Below are positions 3,396-26,778 of a stretch of 64,000 bases of DNA, piece by piece. The number at the start of each line of letters is the position of its first letter. Position 1 is the first letter of the stretch. The position numbers and the translations under genes were made by a program. The DNA lies in contig CACCQD010000001.1 in assembly GCA_902547925.1 (NCBI GenBank), positions 26,557 to 90,556 of the forward strand, in the 5' to 3' direction. The stretch comes from an uncultured SAR116 cluster alpha proteobacterium. Lineage in GTDB: Bacteria > Pseudomonadota > Alphaproteobacteria > Puniceispirillales > Puniceispirillaceae. The notes beneath the pieces were generated by a model. That model made no database searches. It was not told the DNA's origin and was given only the letters and a program-made list of their open reading frames with translations.

Positions 3396-3411
3396 ATCAC
3401 GCCTCTCCCGT

Positions 3412-5261: not shown

Positions 5262-5352
5262 TTTACCACACGCCCATTTCTAACCTGCTCCCAAAACCAT
5301 CTTTTTTTGGAAACTCATTAAACTGATAGAGAGTTTTTCAATCAACGAAAGA

Positions 5353-5378
5353 GGGAAGGCGGACATCTCCACCTTCCC
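5353..5378 (-). terminator. Intercistronic hairpin between dctP and dctQ (possible partial terminator or mRNA stabiliser)
   Basis: GGGAAGG (5353-5359) pairs with CCTTCCC (5372-5378) across a 12-nt loop. It starts 9 nt after the dctP stop and is followed by a T-containing stretch on the minus strand. Confidence 0.35.
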
Positions 5379-5386
5379 TGAAAGAT

Positions 5387-6385: not shown

Positions 6386-6478
6386 TATTTCCTCCATTTT
6401 TAATGTTATGTCACCATGTTTTGCTTTTTTCTGCAGTTGAGTCAAATCAAGGCAATACTTTTGAGAGTTGTACTCGTC

Positions 6479-7612: not shown

Positions 7613-7893
7613 GGAAACACTCCGAAATAAATGTACATGTGGATCAAGATAGCGATGCTAGAGACGCTTTACTAATCAATTAAAAGTAACCTTCTGAATT
7701 TCGTAACCGGATCGGCGAAAAGGTTTCTGAGCTTATATTTAAAATGCGTAAATTTTTACTTAGACACTAAAGTTGAAAGACTTGATAACACCTGATCATT
7801 ATGTTCATTGATTATCCATCAGATTTCGTACTGCAAAACTTAAGGTTGAAGATTTTCATCCACAATCACACACTAAATACGTGAGGACAAATT

Positions 7894-9090: not shown

Positions 9091-9875
9091 CGGAGGAATT
9101 GCGCTATGAGGTGGAGAACAATATCGGCCGGATCATTCTCAACCGGCCACACCGCCGCAATGCGCTCACCTTTGCCATGTATGACCGGATCAGGGAAATC
9201 TGCCGCATCGCTGGCACGGATGATGACACGGACAAGGTCAAGGTTCTGATCTTTTTGGGTGGCGGCGATATGGCCTTTGCTGCTGGAACGGACATCTCTC
9301 AATTCCGCGATTTCACCGACAAACAGCACGCTATTGATTACGAAGAAAAGATCGAGGTGGTGATGGAGCAGATTGAACAATGCGCCGTGCCAACCATCGC
9401 CGCTCTCAACGGGTTTGTGACAGGCGGCGGTGCCAGTGTCGCCGCGTCTTGTGCAATCCGCATTGCCAGCACTGATGTAAAGATTGGTGTGCCCATTGCA
9501 CGCACTCTGGGAAATTGCCTGTCGATCAGTGGGCTTAAAAGGCTGGTGGCTCTGGTCGGTGAAGCGCGGGCGCGATATATTCTGTTGACCGGACAATTGA
9601 TGGATGCCACCGCAGCGCAATCTGCTGGCTTCATTTCCGAGACACTTGCCGACAAACAGGCGGTTGATGCACGGGCAATGGAACTGGCCCAGATGATGAC
9701 AGGATTTGCCCCGCTGACAATAAAGGCGACAATGGAAGGGTTAGGGCGTCTGCGGGCGGCAACGCCCACACCAAGCGACCATGATTTGATTGAAATGTGC
9801 TTTGGCAGCGAAGATTTCAAAGAGGGTATCTCAGCCTTTTTTGAAAAGCGCAAACCTGACTGGCGAGGCAACTAG
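9087..9875 (+). CDS. Enoyl-CoA hydratase/isomerase (crotonase) family protein, copy A
   Basis: 262 aa. Motifs FAAGTDISQF, NGFVTGGGASVAASC and the C-terminal SEDFKEGISAFFEKRKPDW. ATGA overlap with the aminotransferase gene. Confidence 0.88.
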   Translation: MTEELRYEVENNIGRIILNRPHRRNALTFAMYDRIREICRIAGTDDDTDKVKVLIFLGGGDMAFAAGTDISQFRDFTDKQHAIDYEEKIEVVMEQIEQCAVPTIAALNGFVTGGGASVAASCAIRIASTDVKIGVPIARTLGNCLSISGLKRLVALVGEARARYILLTGQLMDATAAQSAGFISETLADKQAVDARAMELAQMMTGFAPLTIKATMEGLGRLRAATPTPSDHDLIEMCFGSEDFKEGISAFFEKRKPDWRGN

Positions 9876-9952: not shown

Positions 9953-9962
9953 TGGTATACCA
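9953..9962. promoter_or_regulatory. Putative GntR/FadR-type operator, site 1 (TGGTATACCA, exact palindrome)
   Basis: Perfect 10-bp palindrome in non-coding DNA, 133 nt upstream of the aldehyde dehydrogenase ATG. Same motif recurs at 17513, 20583 and 24377. Confidence 0.6.
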
Positions 9963-10094
9963 TATCTCCCAATGGAAACGCCATTGACTGAACACGGGCT
10001 GTAGCTATCCATCGTCTTTGTTGGTAGATTCCGGAAATTCTCCCGGGGGTTCAGCCGGGTTTTAGTGGAATTTTTATTGGGGGACCAATTTTAA

Positions 10095-11519
10095 ATGGCA
10101 TACGCACATTACATTGCTGGAGAGTGGGTCACCGACGACGCCGTTTCCATCAATATCAATCCATCCAATACAGATGACATTGTCGGTGAGTTTTCGCGTG
10201 GTGACGCGGCCCGTGTTGACAAGGCCGTTGCCGCAGCGAACGCCGCACAGCCAGACTGGGCGGCCGCCAGCCCCCAACTGCGCCATGATGTGCTTGAAAA
10301 GGCCAGCAATCTGATTGCCAGCCGCAAGGATGAATTGGGCCGTCTGCTCTCTCGCGAGGAAGGCAAGACACTGGCCGAGGGAATTGGCGAGACAATGCGC
10401 GCTGCACAGGTCTTTAAATTTTTTGCCGGTGAAGCCATTCGCAACATTGGTGACGCTGTCGCCTCAATCCGTCCAGGTATTGATGTAACGGTGGAGCGCG
10501 AGGCTGTCGGCACAATCGGCCTGATTACCCCGTGGAATTTTCCGATTGCGATTCCAGCCTGGAAGCTGGCACCCGCATTGGCCTATGGCAATGCGTTAGT
10601 GATGAAACCAGCAGAGTTAACGCCGGGTTGCGCGTGGGAGCTTACGAAGATTCTTCAAGAGGCAGGCTGTCCGTCGGGTGTGTTTAATCTGGTGATGGGA
10701 CCGGGATCAACCGTTGGTGCGCGGATTGTCGAACATCCGGGCATTGATGCCATCAGCTTCACCGGTTCGGTCGCCACTGGCAACACTATCGCTGTGCAGT
10801 GCGCCTCTACCGGCAAACGCGTGCAGATGGAAATGGGCGGCAAAAACCCACTCGTTGTCGTCGATGATGCCGATCTTGATGTTGCTGTCGCAACAGCCGT
10901 CAATGGTGCGTTCTTCTCAACAGGTCAGCGTTGCACGGCCTCTTCCCGGCTGATTGTGACGGCTGGCATTCATGATGCCTTTCTGGAGAAACTGACAAGT
11001 GCCGCCGCCGATCTGATCGTCGGTGACGCGCTGGATGCGGCAACCCAGATCGGGCCCGTTGTCGATCAGAAACAGCTCGACCAGAATTTGCGCTATCTGA
11101 AACTTGCCAGTGATGAAGGCTGTGACGTTCGCGGTGGCGAGTTGGCAAACGGACCGGGCTTTTTTATGAAACCGGCAATCTTTGCCGGGGCAACAAATCA
11201 GATGACCGTCAGCCGTGAGGAAATTTTCGGTCCAATGGCCTCGGTTATCAAGGTGGCTGACTATGACGAAGCGCTGGCAGTGGCAAATGACACTGAGTTC
11301 GGCCTTTCAGCCGGCATCTGCACCACATCACTGAGATATGCCTCAGACTTTCGCAAAAAGGCACAGGCGGGAATGGTGATGGTCAATCTGCCGACCGCCG
11401 GGGTGGATTATCACGTTCCCTTTGGCGGACGAAAAGGGTCGAGCTATGGTCCACGTGAGCAGGGGAGCTATGCGCGGGAGTTCTACACTATCGTCAAGAC
11501 CAGCTACATAGCCCCCTGA
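10095..11519 (+). CDS. NAD(P)-dependent aldehyde dehydrogenase (2-oxoglutarate-semialdehyde / lactaldehyde dehydrogenase-like)
   Basis: 474 aa. Catalytic Glu context MEMGGKNP and catalytic Cys context FFSTGQRCTASSR. GGGGGA lies upstream of the ATG. Confidence 0.9.
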   Translation: MAYAHYIAGEWVTDDAVSININPSNTDDIVGEFSRGDAARVDKAVAAANAAQPDWAAASPQLRHDVLEKASNLIASRKDELGRLLSREEGKTLAEGIGETMRAAQVFKFFAGEAIRNIGDAVASIRPGIDVTVEREAVGTIGLITPWNFPIAIPAWKLAPALAYGNALVMKPAELTPGCAWELTKILQEAGCPSGVFNLVMGPGSTVGARIVEHPGIDAISFTGSVATGNTIAVQCASTGKRVQMEMGGKNPLVVVDDADLDVAVATAVNGAFFSTGQRCTASSRLIVTAGIHDAFLEKLTSAAADLIVGDALDAATQIGPVVDQKQLDQNLRYLKLASDEGCDVRGGELANGPGFFMKPAIFAGATNQMTVSREEIFGPMASVIKVADYDEALAVANDTEFGLSAGICTTSLRYASDFRKKAQAGMVMVNLPTAGVDYHVPFGGRKGSSYGPREQGSYAREFYTIVKTSYIAP

Positions 11520-11566
11520 CCAACTACCCAGTCCCTGATAAGACACGATCCTCGAGCGAGCGAGCA

Positions 11567-12484
11567 ATGACAGCAAAATCCTATTCCGGCATTTGGCCCG
11601 TGGCCCCGACTCCGTTTCACGACAATGGCGTGGTGGATGACGATGGCATGCGCAACGTTCTTGATTGCATGATTGATCAGGGCGTTGACGGCATTTGCAT
11701 TCTGGCAAATTTTTCCGAACAATTCCTGATCTCCGATGCCGAGCGCGATCATCTGATGAGGTTGTGCCTAGCGCATGTCGATGGCCGTGTTCCGGTGATT
11801 GTGACGATCAGCCATTTTGCCACACAGATTGCCGTGGAACGAGCGCGCCTTGCCAAGAAGTTGGGTGCGGCTATTGTCATGATGATGGCACCCTATCACG
11901 GTGCCTTACTGAAAGGCACCGCCGACCAGACATTTGAGCAGGTCAAAGCTGTTGGCGAGGTTGGCATTCCCATCATGATCCAGGATGCCCCGCTCTCAGG
12001 GGTCGAATTGCCGGTTCCCGTTCTGGTGCGTATGGCGACCGAGATTGAGATGGTCAAACTTTTCAAGATCGAGTCCGTTGGTGTTGCGGGCAAACTCCGT
12101 CAGTTGCTTGCTGCCGGTGGTAGTGCCATCGAAGGACCGTTCGATGGCGAGGAAGCAATCACCCTTCTTGCAGATCTGGATGCCGGGGCAACCGGATCGA
12201 TGACCTCGGCGCTAATCCCTGATCTGATTGGACAGGTAATCACGGCGCATGCCGCCAGCAACAGGCGAGAAGCCATTGCTGGTTACACACGAATTCTGCC
12301 AGTGATCAATCACGAGAACAGGCAATGCGGCTTCCGGGCGGCGAAGGCTGCCATGGTTGCGGGCAAAGTCATCAAATCCGATTTCTGTCGCCATCCGATC
12401 CCGCCGCTTCATCCAGAAACCAAGGCTGGTCTTCTCGAATTGCTAACCCCTCTTGACCCGATTGTATTAAATTGGGGACATTAA
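11567..12484 (+). CDS. Dihydrodipicolinate synthase / N-acetylneuraminate lyase (DHDPS/NAL) family protein, divergent
   Basis: 305 aa. Family-like N-terminus GIWPVAPTPFHDNGVVDDDGMRNVLDCMIDQGVDGI and probable Schiff-base Lys in VKLFKIES. The usual GTTGE and Y-N-xP motifs are replaced (ANFSEQ, IQDAP). Confidence 0.75.
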   Translation: MTAKSYSGIWPVAPTPFHDNGVVDDDGMRNVLDCMIDQGVDGICILANFSEQFLISDAERDHLMRLCLAHVDGRVPVIVTISHFATQIAVERARLAKKLGAAIVMMMAPYHGALLKGTADQTFEQVKAVGEVGIPIMIQDAPLSGVELPVPVLVRMATEIEMVKLFKIESVGVAGKLRQLLAAGGSAIEGPFDGEEAITLLADLDAGATGSMTSALIPDLIGQVITAHAASNRREAIAGYTRILPVINHENRQCGFRAAKAAMVAGKVIKSDFCRHPIPPLHPETKAGLLELLTPLDPIVLNWGH

Positions 12485-12487
12485 TGG

Positions 12488-13186
12488 ATGGCTAAGCAGA
12501 ACATCCTTTCAGCATTGATGAATGATGGCCCCATCATCGCCAACGAGCATAGATCGCTCAGTGCCGAGACGGCAGAAAAGCTGCGCGAGTTGATCCTGCT
12601 TGAAAAGCTCCCACCGGGCATGCATATCCCTGAGCGTGATCTGGCCGAAGCGCTCGGCATAAGCCGGACCCCAATGCGCGAGGCATTGCGAACCCTAGCA
12701 ATTGAAGGGCTGGTCGAATTCACCGCAACACGGCGTTCACGCGTGGCCAATCCCTCCATCGACGAGCTTCGTGAAAGTATGACAGTCCTTGCAACATTGG
12801 AAGCACTTGGCGGCGAGCTTGCCTGTGCGATCGCCACGGACAGAGAAATCACAGCGATCGCTGACCTCAATCAGAAAATGATTGAGTGCACCGATAAATT
12901 CTCAGCGATCAATTTCTTTAACACCGATATGGCGTTTCACAGCAGCATCATTACCTCCACCCATAATCAGGCGCTGATCGACACACACCGGCAATATAAT
13001 GCAAAGCTATGGCGGGCGCGCTTCATGTCATCGAAGCGCAAACAGGGGCGTGCCAAAACCTTGCAACAGCATCAGGATATCACCAATGCGTTGGTTTCCC
13101 GGAATGCGTCCAAGATGGCGCAAGTCATGCGCAGTCATATCGAGACGGCGATTGACAATCTTAGCATCCAGCAAAACGAAACATAG
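12488..13186 (+). CDS. GntR-family transcriptional regulator, FCD (FadR-like) C-terminal domain
   Basis: 232 aa. Winged-HTH block LPPGMHIPERDLAEALGISRTPMREALRTLAIEGLVE followed by a helical C-terminal domain of about 140 aa. Starts 4 nt after the DHDPS-like stop. Confidence 0.88.
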   Translation: MAKQNILSALMNDGPIIANEHRSLSAETAEKLRELILLEKLPPGMHIPERDLAEALGISRTPMREALRTLAIEGLVEFTATRRSRVANPSIDELRESMTVLATLEALGGELACAIATDREITAIADLNQKMIECTDKFSAINFFNTDMAFHSSIITSTHNQALIDTHRQYNAKLWRARFMSSKRKQGRAKTLQQHQDITNALVSRNASKMAQVMRSHIETAIDNLSIQQNET

Positions 13187-13228
13187 TTAAGTGCGCCAAA
13201 AAAAAGTTACAACAAGTAGGAGTTTGGC

Positions 13229-14236
13229 ATGAAACCACGCATTGGCATTATTCCGGGAGAACCGGGCGGCATCGGCCCGGAGCTGATTGCAAAATTGCTG
13301 AATGATACCGAGACATGCGCGAAGGCAGATATTCTGTTGATCGGCGATCAGCATTTGTTTGAACAGGGTCAGACGCAGGCCGGCATGGATTTTGCCATGA
13401 CCCGTTGTGATGGCTGGAAAGATGAGTGGACAACGCTGCCAGGCTTTGCGTTGCATCCAATGGATACGATCAACCCGGACGATGTCACCATGTCCGAGGT
13501 CACATATGCCGGTGGTCACTCAGCACTGTCCAATCTGAATTGCGCTTTGGAAATGGCTCGCGATGGCATCATTGACGCGATCATGTTTGGCCCTTTCAAC
13601 AAGGTGGGTTTGATCGAGGCCGGGCTTGGTCACGAGGACGAACTGCATTACATGGCTGAGTTTCTGGGTGTCGAGAGCTATATCTCTGAATTGAATACTC
13701 TGAACGGCATCTGGACGAGCCGCGTTTCCAGCCATATTCCGCTAAAGGATGTTCATTCTTTCATCAACGAGCATCGTATTTCAGAGGCGGTGGATCTGCT
13801 CGACAAAACATTGCGGCGCTCTGGTGTCGAACGTCCACGCCTATCAGTTGCAGCGCTCAATCCTCATGCCGGTGACAATGGAAATTTTGGCATGGAGGAG
13901 ATCGAGGTGATCATCCCGGCCGTCAAAAAGTTGCAGCACAAGCAGGTCAATGTCGACGGCCCGTGGCCATCAGACACTGTTTTTCTAAAGGCTAAGGCTG
14001 GCGAGGTTGACGGCATAATCACCATGTATCACGACCAGGGCCAGATTGCGCTGAAACTGATGGGATTTGATCGCGGTGTAACGGTTCAGGGGGGCATTCC
14101 CTTCCCGGTGACAACACCGGCGCATGGCACCGCCTTTGACATCGCCGGCAGTGGTACCGCCGATGTCGGGGCCACACGCGAAGCCTTTTTGATTGCCTGT
14201 GACATGGTCAGCCATTGGGAAAAAGCAGCACAGTAG
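13229..14236 (+). CDS. PdxA-family NAD-dependent dehydrogenase (4-hydroxythreonine-4-phosphate dehydrogenase-like paralog)
   Basis: 335 aa. Family motifs GEPGGIGPE, NPHAGDNG, MYHDQG and TTPAHGTAFDIAG. AGGAG lies upstream of the ATG. Confidence 0.85.
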   Translation: MKPRIGIIPGEPGGIGPELIAKLLNDTETCAKADILLIGDQHLFEQGQTQAGMDFAMTRCDGWKDEWTTLPGFALHPMDTINPDDVTMSEVTYAGGHSALSNLNCALEMARDGIIDAIMFGPFNKVGLIEAGLGHEDELHYMAEFLGVESYISELNTLNGIWTSRVSSHIPLKDVHSFINEHRISEAVDLLDKTLRRSGVERPRLSVAALNPHAGDNGNFGMEEIEVIIPAVKKLQHKQVNVDGPWPSDTVFLKAKAGEVDGIITMYHDQGQIALKLMGFDRGVTVQGGIPFPVTTPAHGTAFDIAGSGTADVGATREAFLIACDMVSHWEKAAQ

Positions 14237-14352
14237 ACCCGGCATTCAGGACTGCCAGCAGACGCCAGCCGACAGAAATAGGCAATGAAACTGACCTATG
14301 AAACTTGGCAATAAAAGCGGCAAATAAAGCCGCCCAATAAGCCATGAGTTTA

Positions 14353-15837
14353 TCAGGAGTTCTTCTGCTTTGTGATCATTTTCACAATCTGTGAGCCGAA
14401 CAAGCCAAGGAATGACAGCACGAGGAACAACAACGCCAATGGTTGCGCCGCAATCAGCCACCAGGCTCCATCAAACATCTTCAGTGAATTCTGCAGATTG
14501 ACTTCGACCATATGGCCAAGGATCAGACCAACAGCGATCGGTGCAACCGAGAATCCATGGCGACGGGCAAAGAAGCCAACAACCCCAAAAATCAAGGCAA
14601 TCCAAACATCGAGCAATGACGCGCTGAGCGAATAGGCACCAATCACCGACAAGGCAAAGACAATGGGCCACAGTATCGAGGTTGGCACCATGGAGATGCG
14701 TGCAAACAACTTGGCCGCATAGAGGCCCATCGCCAGAAAGATGATGTTGGCGACCAGCATTGCTCCAAAAATCTGGTAAACCGTATCAACCTGCTCGGTA
14801 AACAGATATGGTCCCGGGCGCAGTCCATGTACCATCAACCCGACAAGAATGATCGCAGTTGTGCCGCTCCCCGGGATACCAAGGACCATTGTTGGTACCA
14901 TCGCCCCACCCGTTGCCGCATTGTTGGCAGCCTCTGCACCGGCGATCCCCTCGACCGCGCCCTTACCAAATTCTTCCTTGTTCTTTGACCAGCGCCGGGC
15001 TTCAGAATAGCCAATCATCGAAGCGACAGTCGCACCCTCTGCCGGCAGAATGCCGATGAAGGTGCCAATGCCCGACGACCGCGCAATGGTTCGCCATATC
15101 CGTTTATAGTCCTCTTTTGAAGGGAGCTTGACTGCCTTGAGGCTGATCACCTCGGCCACGAGATGTGCCTTTTTCGACTGCACAAGCAGTTCCGAAATGG
15201 CAAACAGGCCTATCATCACCGGGACAAAGGAGAGGCCCTCATACAATTCGTAATTACCGAACATGAAGCGCTCAATCGAGGTCACGCGCTCTGCCCCGAT
15301 TGTTGCCAACCAGACGCCAAAGATGCCGCCAATCAGATTGCGCACAGCACCCCCTGCTCCCACGCTGGCAAGCATCGACAAGCCAAAGATCGTGAGGGCG
15401 AAATATTCTGGTGGTCTGAATTCATAGGCAACACGGGCCAGCATAGGCGCGGCAAAACACAGCACAATAATCGAGAAAATGCCGCCAATCGTGCTGGCAA
15501 CAACGGCAATGCCGAGCGCCCTTCCAGCCTCACCACGTTGGGCGAGGGGAAAGCCGTCAAAGGTGGTCGCCGCAGCCGCCGAGGTGCCAGGCGTATTGAT
15601 AAGGATTGCCGTGATCGACCCGGCAAAGGTTGCCGACACATAGAGCGTCGCCAAAACGGCAATGGCATGTACAGGCGACATCGTCAGAGTAAATGGCAAC
15701 AGCAGCGCTGCGCCGGTTGTGGCGCCAAGCCCGGGCAATACGCCAATCACGATGCCACCAATAGTGGTGACAAAGATCAGCATCAGCAGATAAGGGTCCA
15801 ACATAACCGAACCAATGGCCGCGAGTGCCTCATACAT
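14353..15837 (-). CDS. tctA: Tripartite tricarboxylate transporter large permease (TctA family)
   Basis: 494 aa polytopic membrane protein downstream of the tctB-like and tctC-like genes. Confidence 0.9.
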   Translation of the reverse strand: MYEALAAIGSVMLDPYLLMLIFVTTIGGIVIGVLPGLGATTGAALLLPFTLTMSPVHAIAVLATLYVSATFAGSITAILINTPGTSAAAATTFDGFPLAQRGEAGRALGIAVVASTIGGIFSIIVLCFAAPMLARVAYEFRPPEYFALTIFGLSMLASVGAGGAVRNLIGGIFGVWLATIGAERVTSIERFMFGNYELYEGLSFVPVMIGLFAISELLVQSKKAHLVAEVISLKAVKLPSKEDYKRIWRTIARSSGIGTFIGILPAEGATVASMIGYSEARRWSKNKEEFGKGAVEGIAGAEAANNAATGGAMVPTMVLGIPGSGTTAIILVGLMVHGLRPGPYLFTEQVDTVYQIFGAMLVANIIFLAMGLYAAKLFARISMVPTSILWPIVFALSVIGAYSLSASLLDVWIALIFGVVGFFARRHGFSVAPIAVGLILGHMVEVNLQNSLKMFDGAWWLIAAQPLALLFLVLSFLGLFGSQIVKMITKQKNS

Positions 15838-15849
15838 TGCGTATTTCCC

Positions 15850-16305
15850 CTAACCGTAATACCAGTTTGTGATCAGCCCACGCGGGAACCTGATCTTCAG
15901 CACTTCGTCAAAAATCAAAAACAAGGTCAGCGGCACGGTCAGCGCGACAAGTCCGGCAACAAGCAGCCGGCGCTCCCCCCATGACACGCTTAGCAAAAAC
16001 ACAACGGCGGCAATCGCAATGAAAAAATCCGCATAGGTGGTCAGCATATAGAACAGGGCGAACAGACCAATGCTGATCCAGGTGGTAGGGCCTTCCATCT
16101 TTACCGGTTCAGGCGGATTTTTCAGATTCTGCCAGATCATGATGCCAACCAACAACAGATTGATCACCATCAGGAAAATGGGAAAGGATCGCGGCTGCAT
16201 ACTGGCCCCGACAATCAATGGCGGCGACGTTCTGAGCTGAAGAGCGAGGTAAATGATCACCACCGAGAACAGGGCAATGATACCTGGAATAACTAACGAT
16301 CGCAT
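15850..16305 (-). CDS. tctB: Tripartite tricarboxylate transporter small subunit (TctB family)
   Basis: 151 aa with about 4 TM segments, located between tctC and tctA. Confidence 0.8.
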   Translation of the reverse strand: MRSLVIPGIIALFSVVIIYLALQLRTSPPLIVGASMQPRSFPIFLMVINLLLVGIMIWQNLKNPPEPVKMEGPTTWISIGLFALFYMLTTYADFFIAIAAVVFLLSVSWGERRLLVAGLVALTVPLTLFLIFDEVLKIRFPRGLITNWYYG

Positions 16306-16378
16306 GGTGATTGGCCCCTGTTACAAAATCGGTGAGCAGCATAAAAACACTGCCCACCAAAAAGTTTGGACAGAAGTC

Positions 16379-17353
16379 CTATTCAATCAGACCCATTTCC
16401 TTGAGGGCTGGACCAAATTCGCCGACCATCATCTTGATCTGCTCACCCCAAGCGCCAGATTCCATCGGCGAGGTGTTATCAAGGCCAGAATTCATCAGAT
16501 AGGCCTGATAGAGTGAGTGACCCATAGCCTTCATCATCGCTGCTTCCATCTCAGCGCGGCGCTCTTCAGAGACACCAGCATGAGTGACAAAACCGCGGGT
16601 TGTTGACAGAACCAGATCGATGCCCATTTCCTTGGCGGTCTTTGCAGCTGGGATCGGGTCCATGCGGTTCTCACCAAGAATAACCAGTGGACACAGATCG
16701 CCTGCCTCGATTGGGGCTGATGCCTCAGACAGGTTCAGTGTGCCAACATCGACAGCACCAGCGACAACCTGTGTTGCCAGCTCGCCGCCACCACCAAATG
16801 GAATGTAAGTCGGCATCGGCTGACCCATGCGCTTGGCCCACAGATAAACAGTCAAATGGTCAATTGTACCTGATGATGTGCCACCGAATTTCATGGCATC
16901 GCCATTCTTCATGCCAGCAACAAACTCCTCGGGGGTCTTGTAGGGGCTGGTCTTACAGTTGACCATTAGGATCTGCGGGTCATTGGTGCCACGAGCGATT
17001 GGTGCCATTTCCTCAACTTTCAGATCGGTCATGCCTTTAGCCATGGCAATGGCGTGACCAACGGTGAAGGTCAGGATTGTATTGCCATCAGCTGGGCGGC
17101 TGTGAAAATACTGCATCGCCGCAGCACCGCCGCCGCCACGTTTGTTGACGACAACCATATCTTGCTTGAGATGCCGACGTGTCCGGATCATCATCATTCT
17201 TGAGTTGACGTCGGTACCACCACCGGCACCAGCGTGGGTGACAACCTCGATAGTACCCTCAGCTGCAACTGCGGGCGCTGTTGTTATGGCCATAACACCG
17301 GCCATTGATGCGATACCGACACCGGCCGCAAGAATCTGCTTTGTATTGAACAT
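16379..17353 (-). CDS. tctC: Tripartite tricarboxylate transporter substrate-binding protein (TctC / Bug family)
   Basis: 324 aa. Signal-peptide-like N-terminus MFNTKQILAAGVGIASMAGVMAITTAPAVAA. Bug-family-like blocks VVNKRGGGGAAA and FGGGGE. Confidence 0.88.
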   Translation of the reverse strand: MFNTKQILAAGVGIASMAGVMAITTAPAVAAEGTIEVVTHAGAGGGTDVNSRMMMIRTRRHLKQDMVVVNKRGGGGAAAMQYFHSRPADGNTILTFTVGHAIAMAKGMTDLKVEEMAPIARGTNDPQILMVNCKTSPYKTPEEFVAGMKNGDAMKFGGTSSGTIDHLTVYLWAKRMGQPMPTYIPFGGGGELATQVVAGAVDVGTLNLSEASAPIEAGDLCPLVILGENRMDPIPAAKTAKEMGIDLVLSTTRGFVTHAGVSEERRAEMEAAMMKAMGHSLYQAYLMNSGLDNTSPMESGAWGEQIKMMVGEFGPALKEMGLIE

Positions 17354-17512
17354 TTGGTTCCTCCCAGAACTTAAAAATCAGAATGTTTTACTCACTCAGT
17401 TTGACCAGTGTTATCCGGCCGTTTATTTGTTGTTGCCCCGGCCAATACCGACACGGCATTCACCCGAACCTTCGCTGCAAAACGGCATCATACATGTACC
17501 GCTACATTATTA

Positions 17513-17522
17513 TGGTATACCA
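17513..17522. promoter_or_regulatory. Putative GntR/FadR-type operator, site 2 (TGGTATACCA, exact palindrome)
   Basis: Perfect palindrome in the 285-nt non-coding gap, 160 nt upstream of the tctC start. Confidence 0.6.
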
Positions 17523-17638
17523 AAATTTCTGGCGAAACAACGCTCAATTACGCAAAAGGAACATTGTCTGAAATGTGTCTGTACTGTCGTTTAACTTATT
17601 GATTTATATGCCTACAAAGTTAAACACCATCAAGCGGA

Positions 17639-18484
17639 TCAATCGACAACAAGACCTGCCTCACTGGCGCGTGCCACCAGATAATCCCGCCCCGTCAGCA
17701 TATCCTCGATACTGGCAAAGCCATTCATATAATGTCCCTGGTAACCCAAACCTTCGATCTTGGCGAACATCGCGCCAAAATCGATTGTGCCCTCACCGGG
17801 TATCTGATGGATCTCGTAGGAGCCATTATTGTCGGCAAGCCGTACCTCATGGCACAGGGAAAAATCCATTGAATCGATAAAGCTATCAATGCCAACACCC
17901 GGCAGAAAATGCGCGTGGTTGGCCGTAAAAGACCATCGCAATGCCGGGCTTTCGATCTGACGGAAGAAATATATGCATTCTGCCGGTGTCACCGGCATGT
18001 AATTGACTTCAGCCAGCACCGGCTCCCAGTTCAGATTTTCGAGGAGCAGAAGCACATTCTTGCTTTCAGCGTAATCCGCAATGCGCCGCAACCTGTCGAT
18101 TGACGCCTGCATGCGCAACTCACGGCAGGCGGTAAAATGATAGCCTCCATGGACGACGATCCACCCGGCACCAACCTTGCCAGCAAGATCTATGTAGGCA
18201 CGCATATATTGATCAACAGCATCCCGGCAGAATGGCGAAATTTCGGCAACATTCACACCGGACAGGGTGTGCAATCCCAGTTTGACGCCATGGGTATCGG
18301 TCAGGCTACGAACCTGCAGACAGCGTTCATCATCGAAGGACTCAAGCTGGTTTGGCGCTATGTCGGTCTGCGCATCAATGAAATGCACATCATTGGCCGC
18401 AGCCCAGACAATTCCTTCCTCGACCGGAACACGCCGTCCAAGATCAATACCTATTCGCTGTTTCAGATTGAGCTGTGCCATCAT
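17639..18484 (-). CDS. Xylose-isomerase-like TIM-barrel enzyme (sugar phosphate isomerase/epimerase family), copy B
   Basis: 281 aa. Blocks RIGIDLGR, GLHTLSGVNVAEISPF, WIVVHGGYHF, LLLENLNWEP and GYQGHYMNGF are collinear with copy A at 2589..3395. Confidence 0.85.
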   Translation of the reverse strand: MMAQLNLKQRIGIDLGRRVPVEEGIVWAAANDVHFIDAQTDIAPNQLESFDDERCLQVRSLTDTHGVKLGLHTLSGVNVAEISPFCRDAVDQYMRAYIDLAGKVGAGWIVVHGGYHFTACRELRMQASIDRLRRIADYAESKNVLLLLENLNWEPVLAEVNYMPVTPAECIYFFRQIESPALRWSFTANHAHFLPGVGIDSFIDSMDFSLCHEVRLADNNGSYEIHQIPGEGTIDFGAMFAKIEGLGYQGHYMNGFASIEDMLTGRDYLVARASEAGLVVD

Positions 18485-18525
18485 TCCTCCTTGTGCCCAA
18501 AATCCACCTTTAACCTCAAAGGCGT

Positions 18526-19338
18526 CTAGCGACCCTTAAAGGCGGGCTTTCGCTTTTCCATGAAGGCGCGTCGGCCCTCAACATAGTCCTCACTCTCAAA
18601 ACAGCCTGTCACCATAGTCTCGATACGGGCCAGATCACGATTGCTGTCAGGTTTATGCAACTCATGGGTTATAGCCTTGATCGATGCCATGGTGAGCGGG
18701 GCGTTCTCGGCAATGCGCGTGGCATAATCGGCAACATAGGCGGACAGCATGTGCCCCGGCATGATCCGATTCACCAAGCCCATTTCACGCGCTTCATCGG
18801 CGGTAAACTGACGTGCCGTAAAAAATATCTCTTTGACCATGGACGGACCGACCAGATCAGCAAGCCGTTTAACCCCCTCAAATCCATAGCCAACACCTAG
18901 CTTGGCGGCTGGCACGGCAAATCGGCTTCGGTCCTCGCAGATGCGCAGATCACAGGCAACTGCCAATCCCATACCCCCGCCAATACAATAGCCTTGGATC
19001 ATTGCAATGGTCGGCTTGGGAAAGCCAAAAACAGCATCGTAGAATGTCTTTGTGGCGGTGCTGTATGTGGCAACATCGTCGCTGCTTGACCGTTCCTTTT
19101 CGAATTTGGAGATATCGGCACCAGAGGCAAAGGCCTTGCCGCCTGCCCCCTGAATGACCAGCAACCGCGCCGACGGATCGGCTGCCATCGCAGCCACCCG
19201 GGCGGCACCAGCCTCATACATTGCCAGCGAAATGGCATTATGTCGTTCTGGATTGTTGATCACCAGATAGCCAATATTGGCCACCACACCAGCTAGAATT
19301 TTGCCGTCGGCGATTGCGTCAAGGTCGGAAAATTTCAT
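18526..19338 (-). CDS. Enoyl-CoA hydratase/isomerase (crotonase) family protein, copy B
   Basis: 270 aa. Motifs FASGADISKF, QGYCIGGGMGLAVACD and SEDYVEGRRAFMEKRKPAF. 4-nt overlap with the CoA-transferase gene. Confidence 0.88.
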   Translation of the reverse strand: MKFSDLDAIADGKILAGVVANIGYLVINNPERHNAISLAMYEAGAARVAAMAADPSARLLVIQGAGGKAFASGADISKFEKERSSSDDVATYSTATKTFYDAVFGFPKPTIAMIQGYCIGGGMGLAVACDLRICEDRSRFAVPAAKLGVGYGFEGVKRLADLVGPSMVKEIFFTARQFTADEAREMGLVNRIMPGHMLSAYVADYATRIAENAPLTMASIKAITHELHKPDSNRDLARIETMVTGCFESEDYVEGRRAFMEKRKPAFKGR

Positions 19339-20519
19339 ATGGCGCCCGCCTCCTCAAAGGCTGCTATTTCAGCCTCGCTATACTCACATTCAGCCAAAAT
19401 TTCGCGCGTATGCTGGCCCAGCTTTGGCGGTGGGCGGCGGATGGTGGGTTCGGACTCGCTCATGATAATGGGTTGTCCGACGATCTGAGTTGCGCCGCGT
19501 TCCTGGCTGTTCATATCCCGGGCAATGCCCAGATGCACGACCTGAGGGCTGGAAAAAACCTTGTCGATGCTGTTGATCTCCCCGCATGGCACGCCGACCT
19601 TGTTGAGGCGGGATATCCAATTATCAGACGTGTCAGCGCGGGTGTTCTCACTGATAAGTGCATTCAGCGTGTCGCGGTGCTCACTACGGGACTCGGCTTG
19701 GGCATAGATATCCGCGTCCAATCGTGGATCACCAATCTCGTCTTTCAAACGCAGCCAGATATGTTGCCCCGCGGCAGCGATATTAATATGACCGTCAGAT
19801 GTCTCGAACACACCGGTTGGGATTGATTTGGGATGGTTGTTGCCAGCCTGATGCGGCACCTCACCATCCATCAGCCAGCGTGTGGCCTGAAAATCAAGCA
19901 TGGCGATCTGCGCCTGCAAAAGCGAGGTTTGCACCCATTGACCAGTGCCCGTTTTTTCCCGGCCAAGCAAGGCCAGCAGCACACCCTGCGCCGCAAAACC
20001 ACCAGCCGTCAGATCCGCGATTGGAATGCCGACGCGCATTGGCCCCTCACCCGGCGCACCGGTGATCGACATCAATCCGCCCATGCCCTGGGCGATCTGA
20101 TCAAATCCGGGACGTGTGGCAAGTGGTCCATCCTGGCCAAAACCAGAGATTGACGCATAAACGATGCGGGGATTGATCGCCTTGATCGTCTCATAATCAA
20201 GGCCGAGGCGGAATTTTACGTCCGGCCTGTAATTCTCGACTATGACATCGGCGTTGGTCGCCAAACGCTTGAAAATGGCCACACCGGATTCATGTTTCAG
20301 ATTAAGAACGACCGAACGCTTGTTGCGATGCAGGTTCTGGAAATCCGAGCCATCACGTGACCCACCCATATCCGCACCCGCCGCATTTGGCGCCTCAATC
20401 TTGATTACATTCGCGCCCCAATCAGCAAGCTGCCGCACACAGGTCGGCCCGGAGCGAACACGTGTCAGGTCAAGAACGGTGATGTGTGACAGGATATCGC
20501 CAGCAGGTTCAAACGCCAT
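19335..20519 (-). CDS. Family III CoA-transferase (CaiB/BaiF type)
   Basis: 394 aa. N-terminus VLDLTRVRSGPTCVRQLADWGANVIKIE and block VIVENYRPDV are typical of family III CoA-transferases. Confidence 0.88.
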   Translation of the reverse strand: MAFEPAGDILSHITVLDLTRVRSGPTCVRQLADWGANVIKIEAPNAAGADMGGSRDGSDFQNLHRNKRSVVLNLKHESGVAIFKRLATNADVIVENYRPDVKFRLGLDYETIKAINPRIVYASISGFGQDGPLATRPGFDQIAQGMGGLMSITGAPGEGPMRVGIPIADLTAGGFAAQGVLLALLGREKTGTGQWVQTSLLQAQIAMLDFQATRWLMDGEVPHQAGNNHPKSIPTGVFETSDGHINIAAAGQHIWLRLKDEIGDPRLDADIYAQAESRSEHRDTLNALISENTRADTSDNWISRLNKVGVPCGEINSIDKVFSSPQVVHLGIARDMNSQERGATQIVGQPIIMSESEPTIRRPPPKLGQHTREILAECEYSEAEIAAFEEAGAI

Positions 20520-20582
20520 TTTTTCCTCGGTAACTGTTCAGATTCTGTCTCTGAAATCCAGCGACACCTCTGACTGTAAAAA

Positions 20583-20592
20583 TTGTATACCA
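20583..20592. promoter_or_regulatory. Putative GntR/FadR-type operator, site 3 (TTGTATACCA, 9/10 match)
   Basis: Lies in the divergent promoter region, 64 nt from the CoA-transferase start and about 105-125 nt from the MatB-like start. Confidence 0.5.
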
Positions 20593-20697
20593 AATTAAGA
20601 AGCTATAGCCCGGCCTGTCAATCGCCTTTGCCCGCGGCCTTTTGGAAGCATTGAAATTGATCTACGTTGTGAAACAGGGTAAATCTGCTGCCGTAAA

Positions 20698-22221
20698 ATG
20701 CTTGGGATGGGTTCAATGACAAATACTCTTTATGATGGGGTTTTCGCGCCCCATGCCGTTAGCAAGAAGGTTTTTTTGTTCACACCCAAAGGTGAGGTCA
20801 GTTTCGCCGCCTTCACCCAGATGACAAACCGTTTGGCCAACTGCCTTGTCGAAAATGGCATGCAACCCGGTGACAGGGTGGCGGTGCAGGCGGAAAAATC
20901 AGTCACACAGCTGGCGCTCTATGCCGCCACTATCAAGGCGGGCGGTGTTTATTTGCCGCTCAACACCGGGTATACACCACATGAGCTAGAGTATTTTGTT
21001 GGTGATGCAAAGCCGACGATTGTCGTTTCTGCCAATGGTGTCAGCGCGGCTATTGCGCCGCTGACGGAGGGCATTGGGGCATCATTATTGACGTTGAATG
21101 CCGATGAGACCGGAAGCCTCACCCAGCAAGCAGACACGGCCTCGCCAGAGTTTGTGACCGTTGCGCGTGGCAGTGAGGATCTGGGGGCTATTCTCTATAC
21201 TTCAGGAACAACTGGGCGATCCAAGGGGGCAAAGTTGTGCCACCGCAATCTGTTGTCAAATGCCGAGATATTGGCCAAGAGCTGGCAATTTAGCAGCGAT
21301 GATGTGTTGCTGCACATGTTGCCAATCTATCACACCCACGGGCTGTTCGTCGCCAGCAACCTACTCTGTATGGTGGGCGGCAGCATGATCTTCCTACCAA
21401 AATTCTCCGCTACTGATGCGCTGGACTGGATGCCGCAAGCCACCAGCATGATGGGGGTTCCGACCTTTTACACGCGGCTCCTCGATGCCCCCGAATTTAC
21501 CCGCGAGGCTGCGAGCCATATGCGGCTGTTCATTTCCGGTTCTGCGCCCATGTTGGCCGAGACACATGTCCAGTTTGAGGAACGCACCGGCAACAGGATT
21601 CTCGAACGCTACGGTATGACCGAGACCAATATGAGCATTTCAAACCCTTATGAGGGCGCACGCGTCGCCGGCACCGTGGGCAAACCTCTGCCCGGGGTCG
21701 AGATTCGCATTGCTGATGCCAAAACAGGCGCGCCCGTTGCAGCTGGCGAAATTGGAGTCATTGAACAACGCGGCGACAACGTGTTTTTAGGGTATTGGGA
21801 AATGCCTGAAAAGACAGCTGAGTCTTTCCGTGATGATGGGTTTTTTATCACTGGCGATATGGCGCAACAGAATGCGGATGGCTACATCACCATCGTTGGC
21901 CGGGACAAGGATTTGATCATTTCTGGCGGTCTGAACGTCTATCCAAAAGAGATCGAGGGTCTGATTGATGAATTTGATGGCGTTCTGGAATCAGCGGTAA
22001 TCGGCGTCCCCCACCGAGATTTTGGTGAGGCCGTGGTTGCTGTTATCGTATCGTCCGATAGCCCTCTTGATATCGATGCCATCCGTGCCTCACTCGCCGG
22101 CAGGATTGCAAAATTCAAACAACCAAAGGCGATCATACTGGCAGACGCCTTGCCAAGAAATACCATGGGCAAGGTGCAAAAGGCTGAATTGCGGAAAACC
22201 CATGCAGATCTGTTTGCCTGA
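20698..22221 (+). CDS. AMP-dependent acyl-CoA synthetase, malonyl-CoA synthetase (MatB)-like
   Basis: 507 aa. AMP-binding motif ILYTSGTTGRSKGA and MatB-like N-terminal region GDRVAVQAEKS...GGVYLPLNTGYT. The true start may be ATG 20716 (MTNTLYDGVF). Confidence 0.85.
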   Translation: MLGMGSMTNTLYDGVFAPHAVSKKVFLFTPKGEVSFAAFTQMTNRLANCLVENGMQPGDRVAVQAEKSVTQLALYAATIKAGGVYLPLNTGYTPHELEYFVGDAKPTIVVSANGVSAAIAPLTEGIGASLLTLNADETGSLTQQADTASPEFVTVARGSEDLGAILYTSGTTGRSKGAKLCHRNLLSNAEILAKSWQFSSDDVLLHMLPIYHTHGLFVASNLLCMVGGSMIFLPKFSATDALDWMPQATSMMGVPTFYTRLLDAPEFTREAASHMRLFISGSAPMLAETHVQFEERTGNRILERYGMTETNMSISNPYEGARVAGTVGKPLPGVEIRIADAKTGAPVAAGEIGVIEQRGDNVFLGYWEMPEKTAESFRDDGFFITGDMAQQNADGYITIVGRDKDLIISGGLNVYPKEIEGLIDEFDGVLESAVIGVPHRDFGEAVVAVIVSSDSPLDIDAIRASLAGRIAKFKQPKAIILADALPRNTMGKVQKAELRKTHADLFA

Positions 22222-22225
22222 CAGT

Positions 22226-23131
22226 TTATCCAACAAAGTGTTGGCTTTTCTCACGCCATAGGATGAACACTGACGAGAGCACAATGACGATGCTGCCGAC
22301 AAAAATTTCAAAAGTCAGAATTTCACCAAAGACCATTATCCCGGCGATGATGCCGAACGGAACCGAGAGATAGCGAAACGGCGCGAGCAGGCTGGCCGGG
22401 GCAAGCCGGTGGCTGAGTGCAATGAAAAACTGCTGAAAGCTTGACAGAGCGCCAATCAGCACGAGTATGACAAGACTGGTCTGATCCATCGGCATCCTTT
22501 CACCTTGCCAGACAAAGAGCAGCGCAAACAGCATTGCGCCAGCGCCATTGTACCAGATGGCGGTGCTTGCTGGGTTCTCACTGCGGCCTAGCTTGCGCAG
22601 CATCACCAGCATCAGAGCCCCAAAAAAGGGAGCCCCAAATCCCAGCATCACACCCAATGGCGACCAGCCGTCAGCACCCGGGCTGATGACCACAATCGCG
22701 CCCCCAAAACCGACAATCACCGCCGTCCACCGGCGCCACCCAACATGTTCACCAAGCAGAAATGGCGCAAGGAAAGTGATAAACAAAGTCAATGTCTGAA
22801 ACAGCGTTGTGACCTTGGCCAGCGCCATCAGATCGAGCGCCGCATAGAAACAGGTCAGGCTACTCAGCCCCGCGATAATCCGTGCGGCCAAAATGCGATA
22901 TTGGGAGACAGCGAATGCGGAATGCCCATGCTGAAAAATCGCGACAAGGATCAAAAGTGGCAGACACAGCGCATAGCGGAACATCAGAATGGTGATGATT
23001 GAGAAATCTGGAGTGATAAATTTCACCAGCACTGAAATACCCACAGTCAGCAGGATTTCAGCGATTCCAATGGAGACTCCGAGGGAAATGTTGGGATGGC
23101 GATCAGACTGTTCTGCAGCATCCACCATCAC
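22226..23131 (-). CDS. DMT-superfamily (EamA-like) permease
   Basis: 301 aa with about 10 hydrophobic segments in a two-EamA-repeat architecture. Lies downstream of the dehydratase gene on the same strand. Confidence 0.8.
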   Translation of the reverse strand: MMVDAAEQSDRHPNISLGVSIGIAEILLTVGISVLVKFITPDFSIITILMFRYALCLPLLILVAIFQHGHSAFAVSQYRILAARIIAGLSSLTCFYAALDLMALAKVTTLFQTLTLFITFLAPFLLGEHVGWRRWTAVIVGFGGAIVVISPGADGWSPLGVMLGFGAPFFGALMLVMLRKLGRSENPASTAIWYNGAGAMLFALLFVWQGERMPMDQTSLVILVLIGALSSFQQFFIALSHRLAPASLLAPFRYLSVPFGIIAGIMVFGEILTFEIFVGSIVIVLSSVFILWREKSQHFVG

Positions 23132-23161
23132 AATGAACCAGAACGAGGAGTGGGTGTCACA

Positions 23162-24334
23162 TCAGCCCTCAATGTCGAATTGATCGACATATTTATCTGA
23201 AATGCTGGTCCCAAGACCCGGCAGCGTATCATCCAGATCGAGGTAACCATCAACAGCGTCCGGATCACCATCGAAGATATAGTAGAAGAGTTCATTGCCA
23301 ACCTCGACATCAAAGACCGGGAAATACTCGCTGATCGGGCAATTGAAATTGGCCATCGTAAGGTGATAATTATGCATTTGTCCGGCATGTGGAATCACCG
23401 GAATCTGATGCGCCTCGGCAACCGCGTTAATCTTCTGGGCGGCGGTAATGCCACCGACACGGTTGGTGTCATATTGCAGAACGCTGACGGCCTTTTCCTG
23501 CAACAGCTGTGCACAGCCAAGCAGCGAGAATTCATGCTCGCCACCGGAAATCGGTATAGGCCCGCGGTTGAGTTCGGCATAGCCCCGCAAATCATCGGCG
23601 ATCACAGGTTCCTCGAGCCAACGCGGCTCAAATTTTTCAAGCTTGGGAAGCATGCGACGGGTGTAATCAAGGTTCCAGCCCATATAAGCCTCAAGCATGA
23701 TATCGGTATCATAGCCGATCACCTCGCGCACCGCCTCGACGCGCTTCAGATTTTCCCGCATCCCAGTCATTCCGTCTCTCGGTCCGTAGCCAAAGCGTGT
23801 CTTGAAACCAGTATAGCCATTTTTCAACGCCTCTTCGGCTTCTGCCTGCATGGCCTCGATCGGCCCCGCATAAAGCTTCGAATAATAGACTGGGATTTTT
23901 TCCTTGGTACGCCCCCCGAGAAGTTTGAAAACCGGCTTGCTAGCCAGCTTTCCCATGAGATCCCAGATGGCAATATCTATGGCTGAAATAGCAACCATGC
24001 CAACACCCTTGCGCCCCCACGCATGGGTGCGGCGGTACATTTTTTCCCAGAGATAGGCGTAATCAAACGGATCCTCGTCAATCACCAGCGGTGCATAGAA
24101 TTCGTCAATGGCTTTTTTCGTCAATGATGGGGCAAGCGCCGCATTGCCGATGCCAACAGTGCCGCAATCGGTCGTGATCTCACAGGTGAGCCACTGGTGA
24201 AAGCGGAAGGAACTCATCGCATCACCCCTCTCCCAAAGCGCGTCTGATGCATTGGTACAGAAATTTCCCTGTGGCGGAACGGTTGGCCCTTTCCAGTTCC
24301 AGACGCGTGCCCTGACCGACATTATTTTTGCCAT
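23162..24334 (-). CDS. Enolase-superfamily acid-sugar dehydratase, L-rhamnonate dehydratase-like
   Basis: ORF 23162..24355 has a TTG start. Preferred start is ATG 24334 ([12 protein letters not shown]) with AGGA upstream. Blocks [27 protein letters not shown] and EEPV; long N-terminal capping region as in the RhamD group. Confidence 0.82.
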
Positions 24335-24376
24335 ATTCCTGTCACTCCCCCCCAATACGATCGTCCGTCCTAAATT

Positions 24377-24386
24377 TGGTATACCG
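24377..24386. promoter_or_regulatory. Putative GntR/FadR-type operator, site 4 (TGGTATACCG, 9/10 match)
   Basis: 43 nt upstream of the dehydratase ATG at 24334, in non-coding DNA between that gene and tRNA-Leu. Confidence 0.5.
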
Positions 24387-24469
24387 TTTTCGCAGGCGGC
24401 AAATCAAGATTAAATCTTGGTAGGCATTTTGTGGTCGCTGTGATATGCACTTTTTACTCTACAGGCTCG

Positions 24470-24554
24470 GCGGGCGTGATGGAATGGTAGACATAACGGA
24501 CTTAAAATCCGTGGGCCCTAGGCCGTGGGGGTTCAAGTCCCCCCGCCCGCACCA
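24470..24554 (+). tRNA. tRNA-Leu, anticodon UAA
   Basis: Hand-folded cloverleaf. Acceptor stem GCGGGCG/CGCCCGC. Anticodon stem ACGGA/TCCGT with loop CTTAAAA (anticodon TAA). Long variable arm typical of Leu. T-arm GGGGG-TTCAAGT-CCCCC. Encoded 3' ACCA. Confidence 0.92.
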
Positions 24555-26617: not shown

Positions 26618-26778
26618 TATCAACATCTCCTCTCTCAAACCTTGCCGATAAGTAAAACGGCCTTTGGGGCTGCGATGATCACAACGAATTCCAAACACTT
26701 GGTCTTCCATTTAGGCGAAATTGTAATCATATATAAGTTTGTCTAAAGTAAGGCATTCGGTACAAGTAAAAAGCCACC

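Follow-up and report, generated by a model that had tools for sequence, protein, structure and literature searches.

The L-lyxonate pathway was reportedly described in Pseudomonas aeruginosa PAO1 by Ghasempur et al. in 2014 (Biochemistry 53:3357). Stack et al. reportedly extended it in 2020 to the breakdown of L-ascorbate by Cupriavidus necator H16 (JACS 142:1657). We found no description of a regulator or an operator for it in the searchable literature. Among GntR-type regulators, the closest described counterpart of the system reported here is UxuR of E. coli, the operator of which, AAATTGGTATACCAATTT, has already served to repress transcription when placed between the −35 and −10 elements (PMC8092373). 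Here we analyse 64 kb of DNA from an uncultured SAR116 cluster alphaproteobacterium (positions 26,557–90,556 of contig CACCQD010000001.1), hereafter the window, to which all positions refer unless a locus is named. In it, a palindromic box with a GT...AC core is found in the promoters of neighbouring catabolic genes and of the operon that holds the local gntR gene. We consider it highly likely that the four copies of this palindrome are the operators of the FCD-subfamily GntR regulator encoded at 12488–13186, and that they serve to repress a core set of genes leading from L-lyxonate to 2-oxoglutarate.

Occurrence and conservation of the box

An earlier, sequence-only reading of this DNA had placed exact copies of the palindrome TGGTATACCA at 9953 and 17513 and one-mismatch copies at 20583 and 24377, all of them in non-coding DNA, and our scans agree with it on each point. 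Two exact matches were found where 0.02 were expected, and none of 100 dinucleotide shuffles gave two. Allowing up to one mismatch added only TTGTATACCA and TGGTATACCG in the whole 64 kb, for a total of four against 0.77 expected (four were also reached in one of 100 shuffles), and at two mismatches the matches were at background level (18 versus 15). By gene calls that Pfam supports, all four boxes are intergenic, in a window of which approximately 14% is non-coding. The distances to the start codons given by that reading hold on recount, and are listed with the scores obtained from the matrix described below:

9953–9962: box 1, TGGTATACCA, extended taatttTGGTATACCAtatctc; 133 nt upstream of the aldH ATG (10095); 26.4 bits
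17513–17522: box 2, TGGTATACCA; 160 nt upstream of the tctC ATG (17353), within the 285 bp that separate tctC from the TIM-barrel gene; 26.4 bits
20583–20592: box 3, TTGTATACCA; 64 nt from the CoA-transferase start (20519) and 106 nt from the start of the divergent MatB-like open reading frame (ORF; 20698); 25.0 bits
24377–24386: box 4, TGGTATACCG (CGGTATACCA in the orientation of lyxD); approximately 41 nt upstream of the lyxD ATG (24334–24336); 21.6 bits

The flanks of the boxes are AT-rich and resemble each other (taatttTGG..., ttattaTGG..., ...CCAaaattt and ...CCAaattaa), and the element is therefore really some 18–20 bp long, with the consensus AAATTTGGTATACCAAATTT, which goes beyond the 10-bp motif of the earlier reading. 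A symmetric position weight matrix (PWM) trained on 36 boxes, all from other genomes and none from the window, clearly separated the four boxes from everything else: the runner-up position, inside tctA at 14774, scored 11.7 bits, and the maximum over 200 shuffles averaged 10.3 bits and never exceeded 19.8. A matrix that included the window sites showed the same gap, the boxes scoring 21.6–28 bits and the next best position, again in tctA, 11.7–13 bits across both matrices. Neither pattern nor PWM scans found either type of box (the present one or that of a paralogous regulator, described below) in the TRAP/aminotransferase promoter at 7613–7893, where the sequence-only reading had also seen no site. 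These data establish the sites and their specificity within the window.

The sub-threshold box-like sequence inside tctA, TGGTAAACCG at 14774–14783 (12–13 bits), has weaker look-alikes inside tctA at position 4649 of locus L004 and position 11269 of locus L171, and probably reflects conservation of the coding sequence.

To follow the box in other genomes, orthologues of the regulator (44–69% identity) were gathered from reference genomes, metagenome contigs (reached via CoA-transferase, LyxD and regulator searches) and two plasmid-database records of cultured strains. A box was called at 15 bits or more, and distinct genomes with the upstream regions on the contig were counted as evaluable. 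A box stood at the expected place in approximately 21 of the 22 evaluable orthologue-bearing genomes, so that the conservation upstream of orthologous operons which the sequence-only reading had proposed to look for is found across families, namely in Puniceispirillaceae/SAR116, Rhodobiaceae, Kiloniellaceae, Paracoccaceae, Hyphomicrobiales and Rhizobiaceae. Two layouts were seen. In Paracoccaceae, Kiloniellaceae and Hyphomicrobiales there is a single operon, tctCBA-lyxD-DHDPS-gntR-pdxA, with one box only, aatttTGGTAT[A/G/T]CCAaaat, upstream of tctC, and the SAR116/Rhodobiaceae-type loci (L001, L004, L080, L081, L162–L168 and L171–L176) are arranged like the window and have their boxes at the corresponding promoters. 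An exact box lies 87 nt upstream of tctC on the Qingshengfaniella alkalisoli plasmid NZ_CP042264, and another 33 nt upstream of lyxD-gntR in Shinella sp. PSBB067.

At locus L006, a TRAP system takes the place of the tripartite tricarboxylate-type transporter (TTT), and the box is retained between dctP and gntR. No such box was found at L082 or at 77 CoA-transferase loci (L083–L159), for which no orthologue of the regulator was found among the loci listed; sequences with at most one mismatch number 0.4 per 100 kb at these loci. Because L006 keeps the box, the orthologue-free loci lack it and a paralogous regulator has a different one, the box tracks the local regulator and not the target genes. 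In the comparative loci, matches with at most one mismatch occur at 6.9–16 per 100 kb where an orthologue of the regulator is present, compared with 0.4–0.6 per 100 kb in control loci totalling 1.9 Mb; an equal density in unrelated DNA, which the sequence-only reading had named as evidence that would count against its proposal, was thus not observed in these loci. Conservation and co-occurrence with the regulator are likewise established by these data.

The conservation also extends to the individual sites. Syntenic counterparts of box 1 lie upstream of aldH, DHDPS or pdxA in seven loci (L001, L002, L004, L080, L171, L173 and L175). Box 2 forms a conserved island in the alignment of tctC upstream regions, and a box upstream of tctC is also present in L001, L004, L005, L007–L009, L011–L014, L080, L081, L162, L163, L169, L171, L173 and L175. 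At the CoA-transferase operon, the box is found in the window and in six relatives (L001, L004, L080, L081, L173 and L175), all with the identical TTGTATACCA; L162, L163 and L171 have only a weak counterpart or none. For box 4, the same CGGTATACCA lies 45–55 nt upstream of lyxD in L162–L168, and when the regions upstream of lyxD from the window, L162 and L163 are aligned (mean identity 69%), AAACGGTATACCAAAT stands out as an island without any change. Because TTGTATACCA at the CoA-transferase and CGGTATACCA at lyxD recur in relatives, we regard the one-mismatch boxes 3 and 4 as conserved site-specific variants and not as degenerate copies.

The 133-nt stretch between box 1 and aldH also contains a GC hairpin followed by TTTTAG, resembling a terminator, at 10042–10059 on the plus strand; since the leader is far shorter in relatives such as L001, it is probably not a conserved attenuator. 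An Rfam search of the DNA returned tRNA only and no leader RNA.

These comparisons also bear on whether the four matches could have arisen by chance, or as a dispersed repeat with no regulatory role, as might be argued from the greater frequency of short AT-rich palindromes in intergenic DNA and from the one shuffle in 100 that reached four matches. We rejected this explanation as extremely improbable, given the excess of exact copies, the location of all four boxes in the small non-coding share of the window, flanks that beyond approximately 20 bp are unrelated between sites, the wide PWM gap and, above all, positions so strongly conserved in many genomes that the comparative data effectively refute it.

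The regulator and its proposed mode of action

The candidate box-binding protein is encoded next to the KDP (L-2-keto-3-deoxypentonate) dehydratase gene:

12488–13186, plus strand: FCD-subfamily GntR regulator (Pfam GntR and FCD)

Its domains, as named by the sequence-only reading, were confirmed by Pfam, with 54.8 bits to PF00392 (GntR winged helix–turn–helix; cut-off 27) and 79.9 bits to PF07729 (FCD; cut-off 24.3). Residues D147, H151, H195 and H217 are invariant across 25 homologues and, by analogy, are the presumed metal ligands of the FCD domain. The protein sequence is identical to a database protein, and the members of its 90%-identity cluster carry the labels SAR116 cluster bacterium or Puniceispirillaceae. 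Orthologues of the regulator (at the 44–69% identity given above) always adjoin box-preceded operons, and in essentially all loci gntR itself lies within such an operon, which supports the autoregulation deduced earlier from its place behind box 1. The FadR/FCD type of operator that had been suggested for the palindrome is supported as well, as its core is the same as that of the published E. coli UxuR operator.

That shared core can be turned into an argument for a different binder, i.e. that the boxes are real but are bound by another FCD/GntR regulator encoded elsewhere, such as a UxuR/ExuR-like hexuronate regulator, with the local gntR as a passenger; related FCD regulators do own similar boxes, and the visible portion of the genome is 64 kb. 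Against this, box and local regulator orthologues occur together in approximately 21 genomes with varied gene orders and transporter types, the box is absent where the local regulator is absent, gntR is itself part of a box-preceded operon and the regulon contains no hexuronate genes. Moreover, the local protein scores only 45.4 bits against the Uxu operon regulator model NF007588 (cut-off 442), and we therefore rejected the idea that it is a UxuR orthologue. Taken together, we consider a different binder very unlikely, and infer that the boxes are bound by the local regulator.

At box 4, a putative promoter overlaps the box:

24378–24408, minus strand: inferred lyxD promoter, with CTTGAT (24408–24403), a 19-nt spacer and TATACC (24383–24378, within box 4)

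The spacing CTTGAT-N19-TATACC is exact in three diverged genomes (window, L162 and L163), and a consensus promoter scanner returned nothing at this site. The sole match of the sigma-70 scans was a weak one at tctC, with box 2 inside its spacer, where alignment by eye shows TTGTnT-N17-TACCnT to be common to several relatives. We propose that a dimer of the regulator would bind each 18–20 bp box, which, at least for lyxD and tctC, would overlap the −10 region, so that transcription would be repressed. The repressed units would be aldH-KDP dehydratase-gntR-pdxA-like, tctCBA, CoA-transferase-crotonase-TIM barrel and lyxD-EamA, and the regulator would repress its own gene, as gntR belongs to the aldH unit. 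A sugar-acid effector bound at the putative metal site of the FCD domain would then free the DNA of repressor. Repression by promoter occlusion is suggested because the TATACC of lyxD lies in the box, the tctC box lies in the spacer and the UxuR operator is repressible.

It might be argued instead that at certain boxes, above all 1 and 2, the regulator activates transcription or acts in both ways. Some FadR-subfamily proteins act as dual regulators, 133 and 160 nt separate these two boxes from the ATG, and there is no clear promoter overlap at box 1. This is nevertheless unlikely, in view of the conserved −10-like TATACC that the lyxD box overlaps at a fixed spacing to CTTGAT, and of the promoter-like match at tctC with the box in its spacer. 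In addition, most catabolic FCD regulators, e.g. UxuR, are repressors, the UxuR site having served as a repressible operator (PMC8092373).

Pathway genes behind the boxes

The core genes preceded by the boxes, together with the family assignments that the database searches establish, are as follows:

23162–24334, minus strand: lyxD, predicted L-lyxonate dehydratase of the enolase superfamily (768 bits, approximately 83% identity to PDB 3STP/3SQS/3SSZ)
22226–23131, minus strand: EamA/DMT transporter gene (Pfam EamA), presumably co-transcribed with lyxD
11567–12484, plus strand: DHDPS-family KDP dehydratase gene (homology)
10095–11519, plus strand: aldH, aldehyde dehydrogenase (Pfam Aldedh)
13229–14236, plus strand: PdxA-family enzyme, candidate 2-carboxy-L-lyxonate decarboxylase (Pfam PdxA)
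14353–17353, minus strand: tctCBA, TTT transporter (Pfam TctA, TctB and TctC)

The Pfam families behind the gene labels of the sequence-only reading were confirmed, and two labels could be refined, ‘RhamD-like’ to L-lyxonate dehydratase and DHDPS-like to KDP dehydratase, making the pathway identifiable, which it had not been before. In LyxD, the K-T-R of the K-x-R motif and the catalytic histidine of IPVIPHAG align with chain residues K199, R201 and H338 of 3STP, reportedly the L-lyxonate dehydratase from Labrenzia aggregata that Ghasempur et al. (2014) described; residues 201 and 338, less a 22-residue tag offset, would presumably be the native R179 and H316 of that study. On this alignment, we assign the protein as an L-lyxonate dehydratase. 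A homologue is named ‘L-lyxonate dehydratase’ by one source and ‘L-rhamnonate dehydratase’ by NCBI. The lyxD-EamA pair is kept in L162–L168.

The KDP dehydratase matches L-2-keto-3-deoxyarabonate dehydratase (PDB 7C0C/3FKK) with E = 2.5e-98, and L-lyxonate and L-arabinonate yield the same 2-keto-3-deoxy-L-pentonate. The best NCBIfam models for aldH are alpha-ketoglutarate semialdehyde (alpha-KGSA) and 2,5-dioxovalerate dehydrogenase, and it is probably an alpha-KGSA dehydrogenase, a specificity that we can only predict because its score lies below the equivalog cut-off (505 versus 770 bits). Both genes are co-located with lyxD. The PdxA-like protein scores under the cut-off of all models for true PdxA, and its gene stays linked with gntR at almost every locus and comes first in the pdxA-aldH-crotonase-DHDPS-gntR order of L171. 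According to Stack et al. (2020), a PdxA-family enzyme reportedly decarboxylates 2-carboxy-L-lyxonate to L-lyxonate in ascorbate catabolism, and this is probably the role of the PdxA-like protein here. The TTT genes lie within a box-preceded operon in most orthologous loci.

On these assignments (LyxD, KDP dehydratase, aldH and the PdxA-like protein), the core function of the regulon is most likely the uptake of L-lyxonate or 2-carboxy-L-lyxonate and its conversion to 2-oxoglutarate. The TTT system would import a (di)carboxylic sugar acid, a dicarboxylate being a substrate that would suit such a transporter. The PdxA-family enzyme would then probably decarboxylate 2-carboxy-L-lyxonate, a breakdown product of ascorbate/2,3-diketogulonate, to L-lyxonate, which LyxD would dehydrate. 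A second dehydration by the KDP dehydratase and oxidation by alpha-KGSA dehydrogenase would give 2-oxoglutarate. According to PMC11066805, diketogulonate rearranges without an enzyme to 2-carboxy-L-pentonate and its lactones, and the decay of these compounds gives L-lyxonate and L-xylonate. An ascorbate pathway that needs a LyxD-type enzyme is referred to in PMC10444878.

In L001 (11727–12851), L002, L004, L080–L082, L173 and L175, an extra enolase-superfamily gene, approximately 30% identical to LyxD, directly follows pdxA; the window has no such gene, and its pdxA meets the convergent tctA. In the RefSeq record NZ_CP042264 (L169, 6865–8040), the LyxD orthologue is named ‘L-rhamnonate dehydratase’ and the PdxA-like protein ‘4-hydroxythreonine-4-phosphate dehydrogenase PdxA’; neither name is likely to be right for these orthologues.

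Box 3 lies between a second set of genes, of CoA-dependent type:

17639–20519, minus strand: family III CoA-transferase, crotonase and xylose-isomerase-like TIM-barrel genes (Pfam, NCBIfam)
20698–22221, plus strand: MatB-like acyl/malonyl-CoA synthetase gene (NCBIfam malonyl-CoA synthase subfamily, 749 bits versus a cut-off of 558)

The CoA-transferase, crotonase and TIM-barrel genes are clade-specific members of the regulon. In L173 and L175, a sulfatase gene replaces the ligase gene as the divergent neighbour and the box is kept; because it persists there, box 3 serves the CoA-transferase operon. The intergenic region between ligase and CoA-transferase has no box in L163 and L171. The sequence-only reading had grouped all these units into one regulon, and its grouping stands for aldH/DHDPS/gntR/pdxA, tctCBA, the CoA-transferase unit and lyxD-DMT, each of which lies behind a box; the MatB-like ligase, which shares only the intergenic region with box 3, is the weakest candidate. 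In the window, the aminotransferase-crotonase pair at 7894–9875 is not preceded by a box; L002 and L173 do have one ahead of the aminotransferase, and in L171 the crotonase gene is found within the regulated operon. NCBIfam and PDB searches gave no function for the TIM barrel, the crotonases or the CoA-transferase.

It is conceivable, although we hold it to be rather doubtful, that the repressor couples the route from L-lyxonate with a CoA-dependent branch, hitherto undescribed, for another ascorbate/diketogulonate breakdown product, which would define a new marine pathway for vitamin C-decay products with TTT uptake in SAR116 and relatives. Such a branch would comprise the family III CoA-transferase, the two crotonases and the TIM barrel, with the BhcA-like aminotransferase and the MatB-like ligase as possible members. 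Its substrate might be, for example, the 2-carboxy-L-xylonate or L-xylonate epimer, or a derived dicarboxylate.

Several observations weigh against operators that repress an L-lyxonate core. The sigma-70 scans gave no convincing promoter at three of the four boxes, and occlusion is conjectural at boxes 1 and 2 because both lie far from their start codons. The most divergent orthologue locus, L015, has no upstream box, and the box count covers only 64 kb of this genome. The known L-lyxonate pathway has no step to which the CoA-dependent genes could be assigned, and none of the Pfam-annotated genes at 2.5–36 kb of the window encodes a cytochrome b561, a lactonase, a rearrangement enzyme or an amidohydrolase. 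Finally, the role given to the PdxA-like protein depends on what Stack et al. (2020) reportedly found, and the operator reading of the boxes is itself drawn from sequence evidence.

Genomic surroundings and comparison with known systems

Between box 4 and the lyxD start on one side and an SDR gene at 24709 on the other lies a tRNA-Leu(UAA) gene (24470–24554, plus strand), in a gap that the sequence-only reading had taken for plain promoter DNA; the catabolic cluster thus borders on a tRNA gene, a common island boundary. Adjoining the SDR gene, and outside the regulon, is a 428-amino-acid ORF (25424–26710, minus strand) with no Pfam or NCBIfam match. A second, adjacent sugar-acid-like cluster, free of boxes, occupies 2589–7612 on the minus strand. 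Besides a TIM barrel and TRAP dctPQM, it contains an enolase-superfamily member resembling muconate cycloisomerases/epimerases, and the annotated genes of the window, up to approximately 36 kb, revealed no regulator for this cluster. At the left end of the window, a minus-strand frame (1–2258), open for more than 750 codons and continuing beyond the edge of the window, matches a FAD-oxidase/Fe-S (CCG) protein of approximately 970–990 amino acids that lies beside the aminotransferase in relatives. ‘ORF619’ (619–1350, plus strand), considered as a conserved unknown module protein, had no family match and was rejected as an antisense shadow of this frame.

Some dozen genes with generic or wrong database labels, e.g. 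‘L-rhamnonate dehydratase’, ‘PdxA’ or ‘dihydrodipicolinate synthase family’, can by this analysis be assigned a regulator, an operator and a substrate class that is coherent, in a member of SAR116, a group of abundant and hard-to-culture marine bacteria. The analysis predicts that the TTT system would import ascorbate-derived acids of the L-lyxonate type, which would link the regulon to the decay of vitamin C, and it draws attention to a set of co-regulated genes of CoA-dependent type. The regulator and its box could also serve as parts of a sugar-acid biosensor, as has been done with UxuR.

With the pathway as reported for P. aeruginosa PAO1 and C. necator H16, the window shares LyxD, a DHDPS-family KDP dehydratase, an alpha-KGSA-type dehydrogenase and a PdxA-family enzyme. 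It differs in using a TTT system, in that genes for ascorbate oxidation, the lactonase and the rearrangement were not seen nearby, and in adding the CoA-transferase, two crotonases, the TIM barrel and a BhcA-like aminotransferase.

A further comparison is offered by a paralogous FCD-GntR (approximately 35% identity) encoded divergently from a BhcA-like class-V aminotransferase in Bradyrhizobium, Burkholderiales, Pseudomonas and others (among loci L016–L079). Its conserved box, TTGnATnCAA/aTTTTGnATnCAAAAt, lies in the divergent promoter, at approximately 9700–9990 in L024, L030–L032, L036, L045, L052, L057–L059, L067, L071 and L076–L079. These loci resemble the window in their AT-flanked 10-bp palindrome and in common target families (AT5, crotonase and CoA-transferase), but have no lyxD, KDP dehydratase or pdxA, and their box is not TGGTATACCA. 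The paralogue suggests a second, widespread regulon of aminotransferase, crotonase, CoA-transferase and FAD/Fe-S oxidase genes.

With E. coli UxuR and ExuR, the window regulator shares the GntR winged helix–turn–helix plus FCD architecture, a sugar-acid catabolic regulon and a likely metal-mediated effector site, and with UxuR also the operator core TGGTATACCA in AT-rich flanks, a resemblance of mechanism and not of membership. In contrast, the register of the flanks differs from that of UxuR (AATTTGGTA versus AAATTGGTA), and the targets are L-lyxonate, TTT and CoA-module genes and not uxu/exu. The system in the window is an FCD-GntR regulon of the typical kind, its operator resembles that of UxuR, and it represents a well-supported example of an ordinary type of switch.

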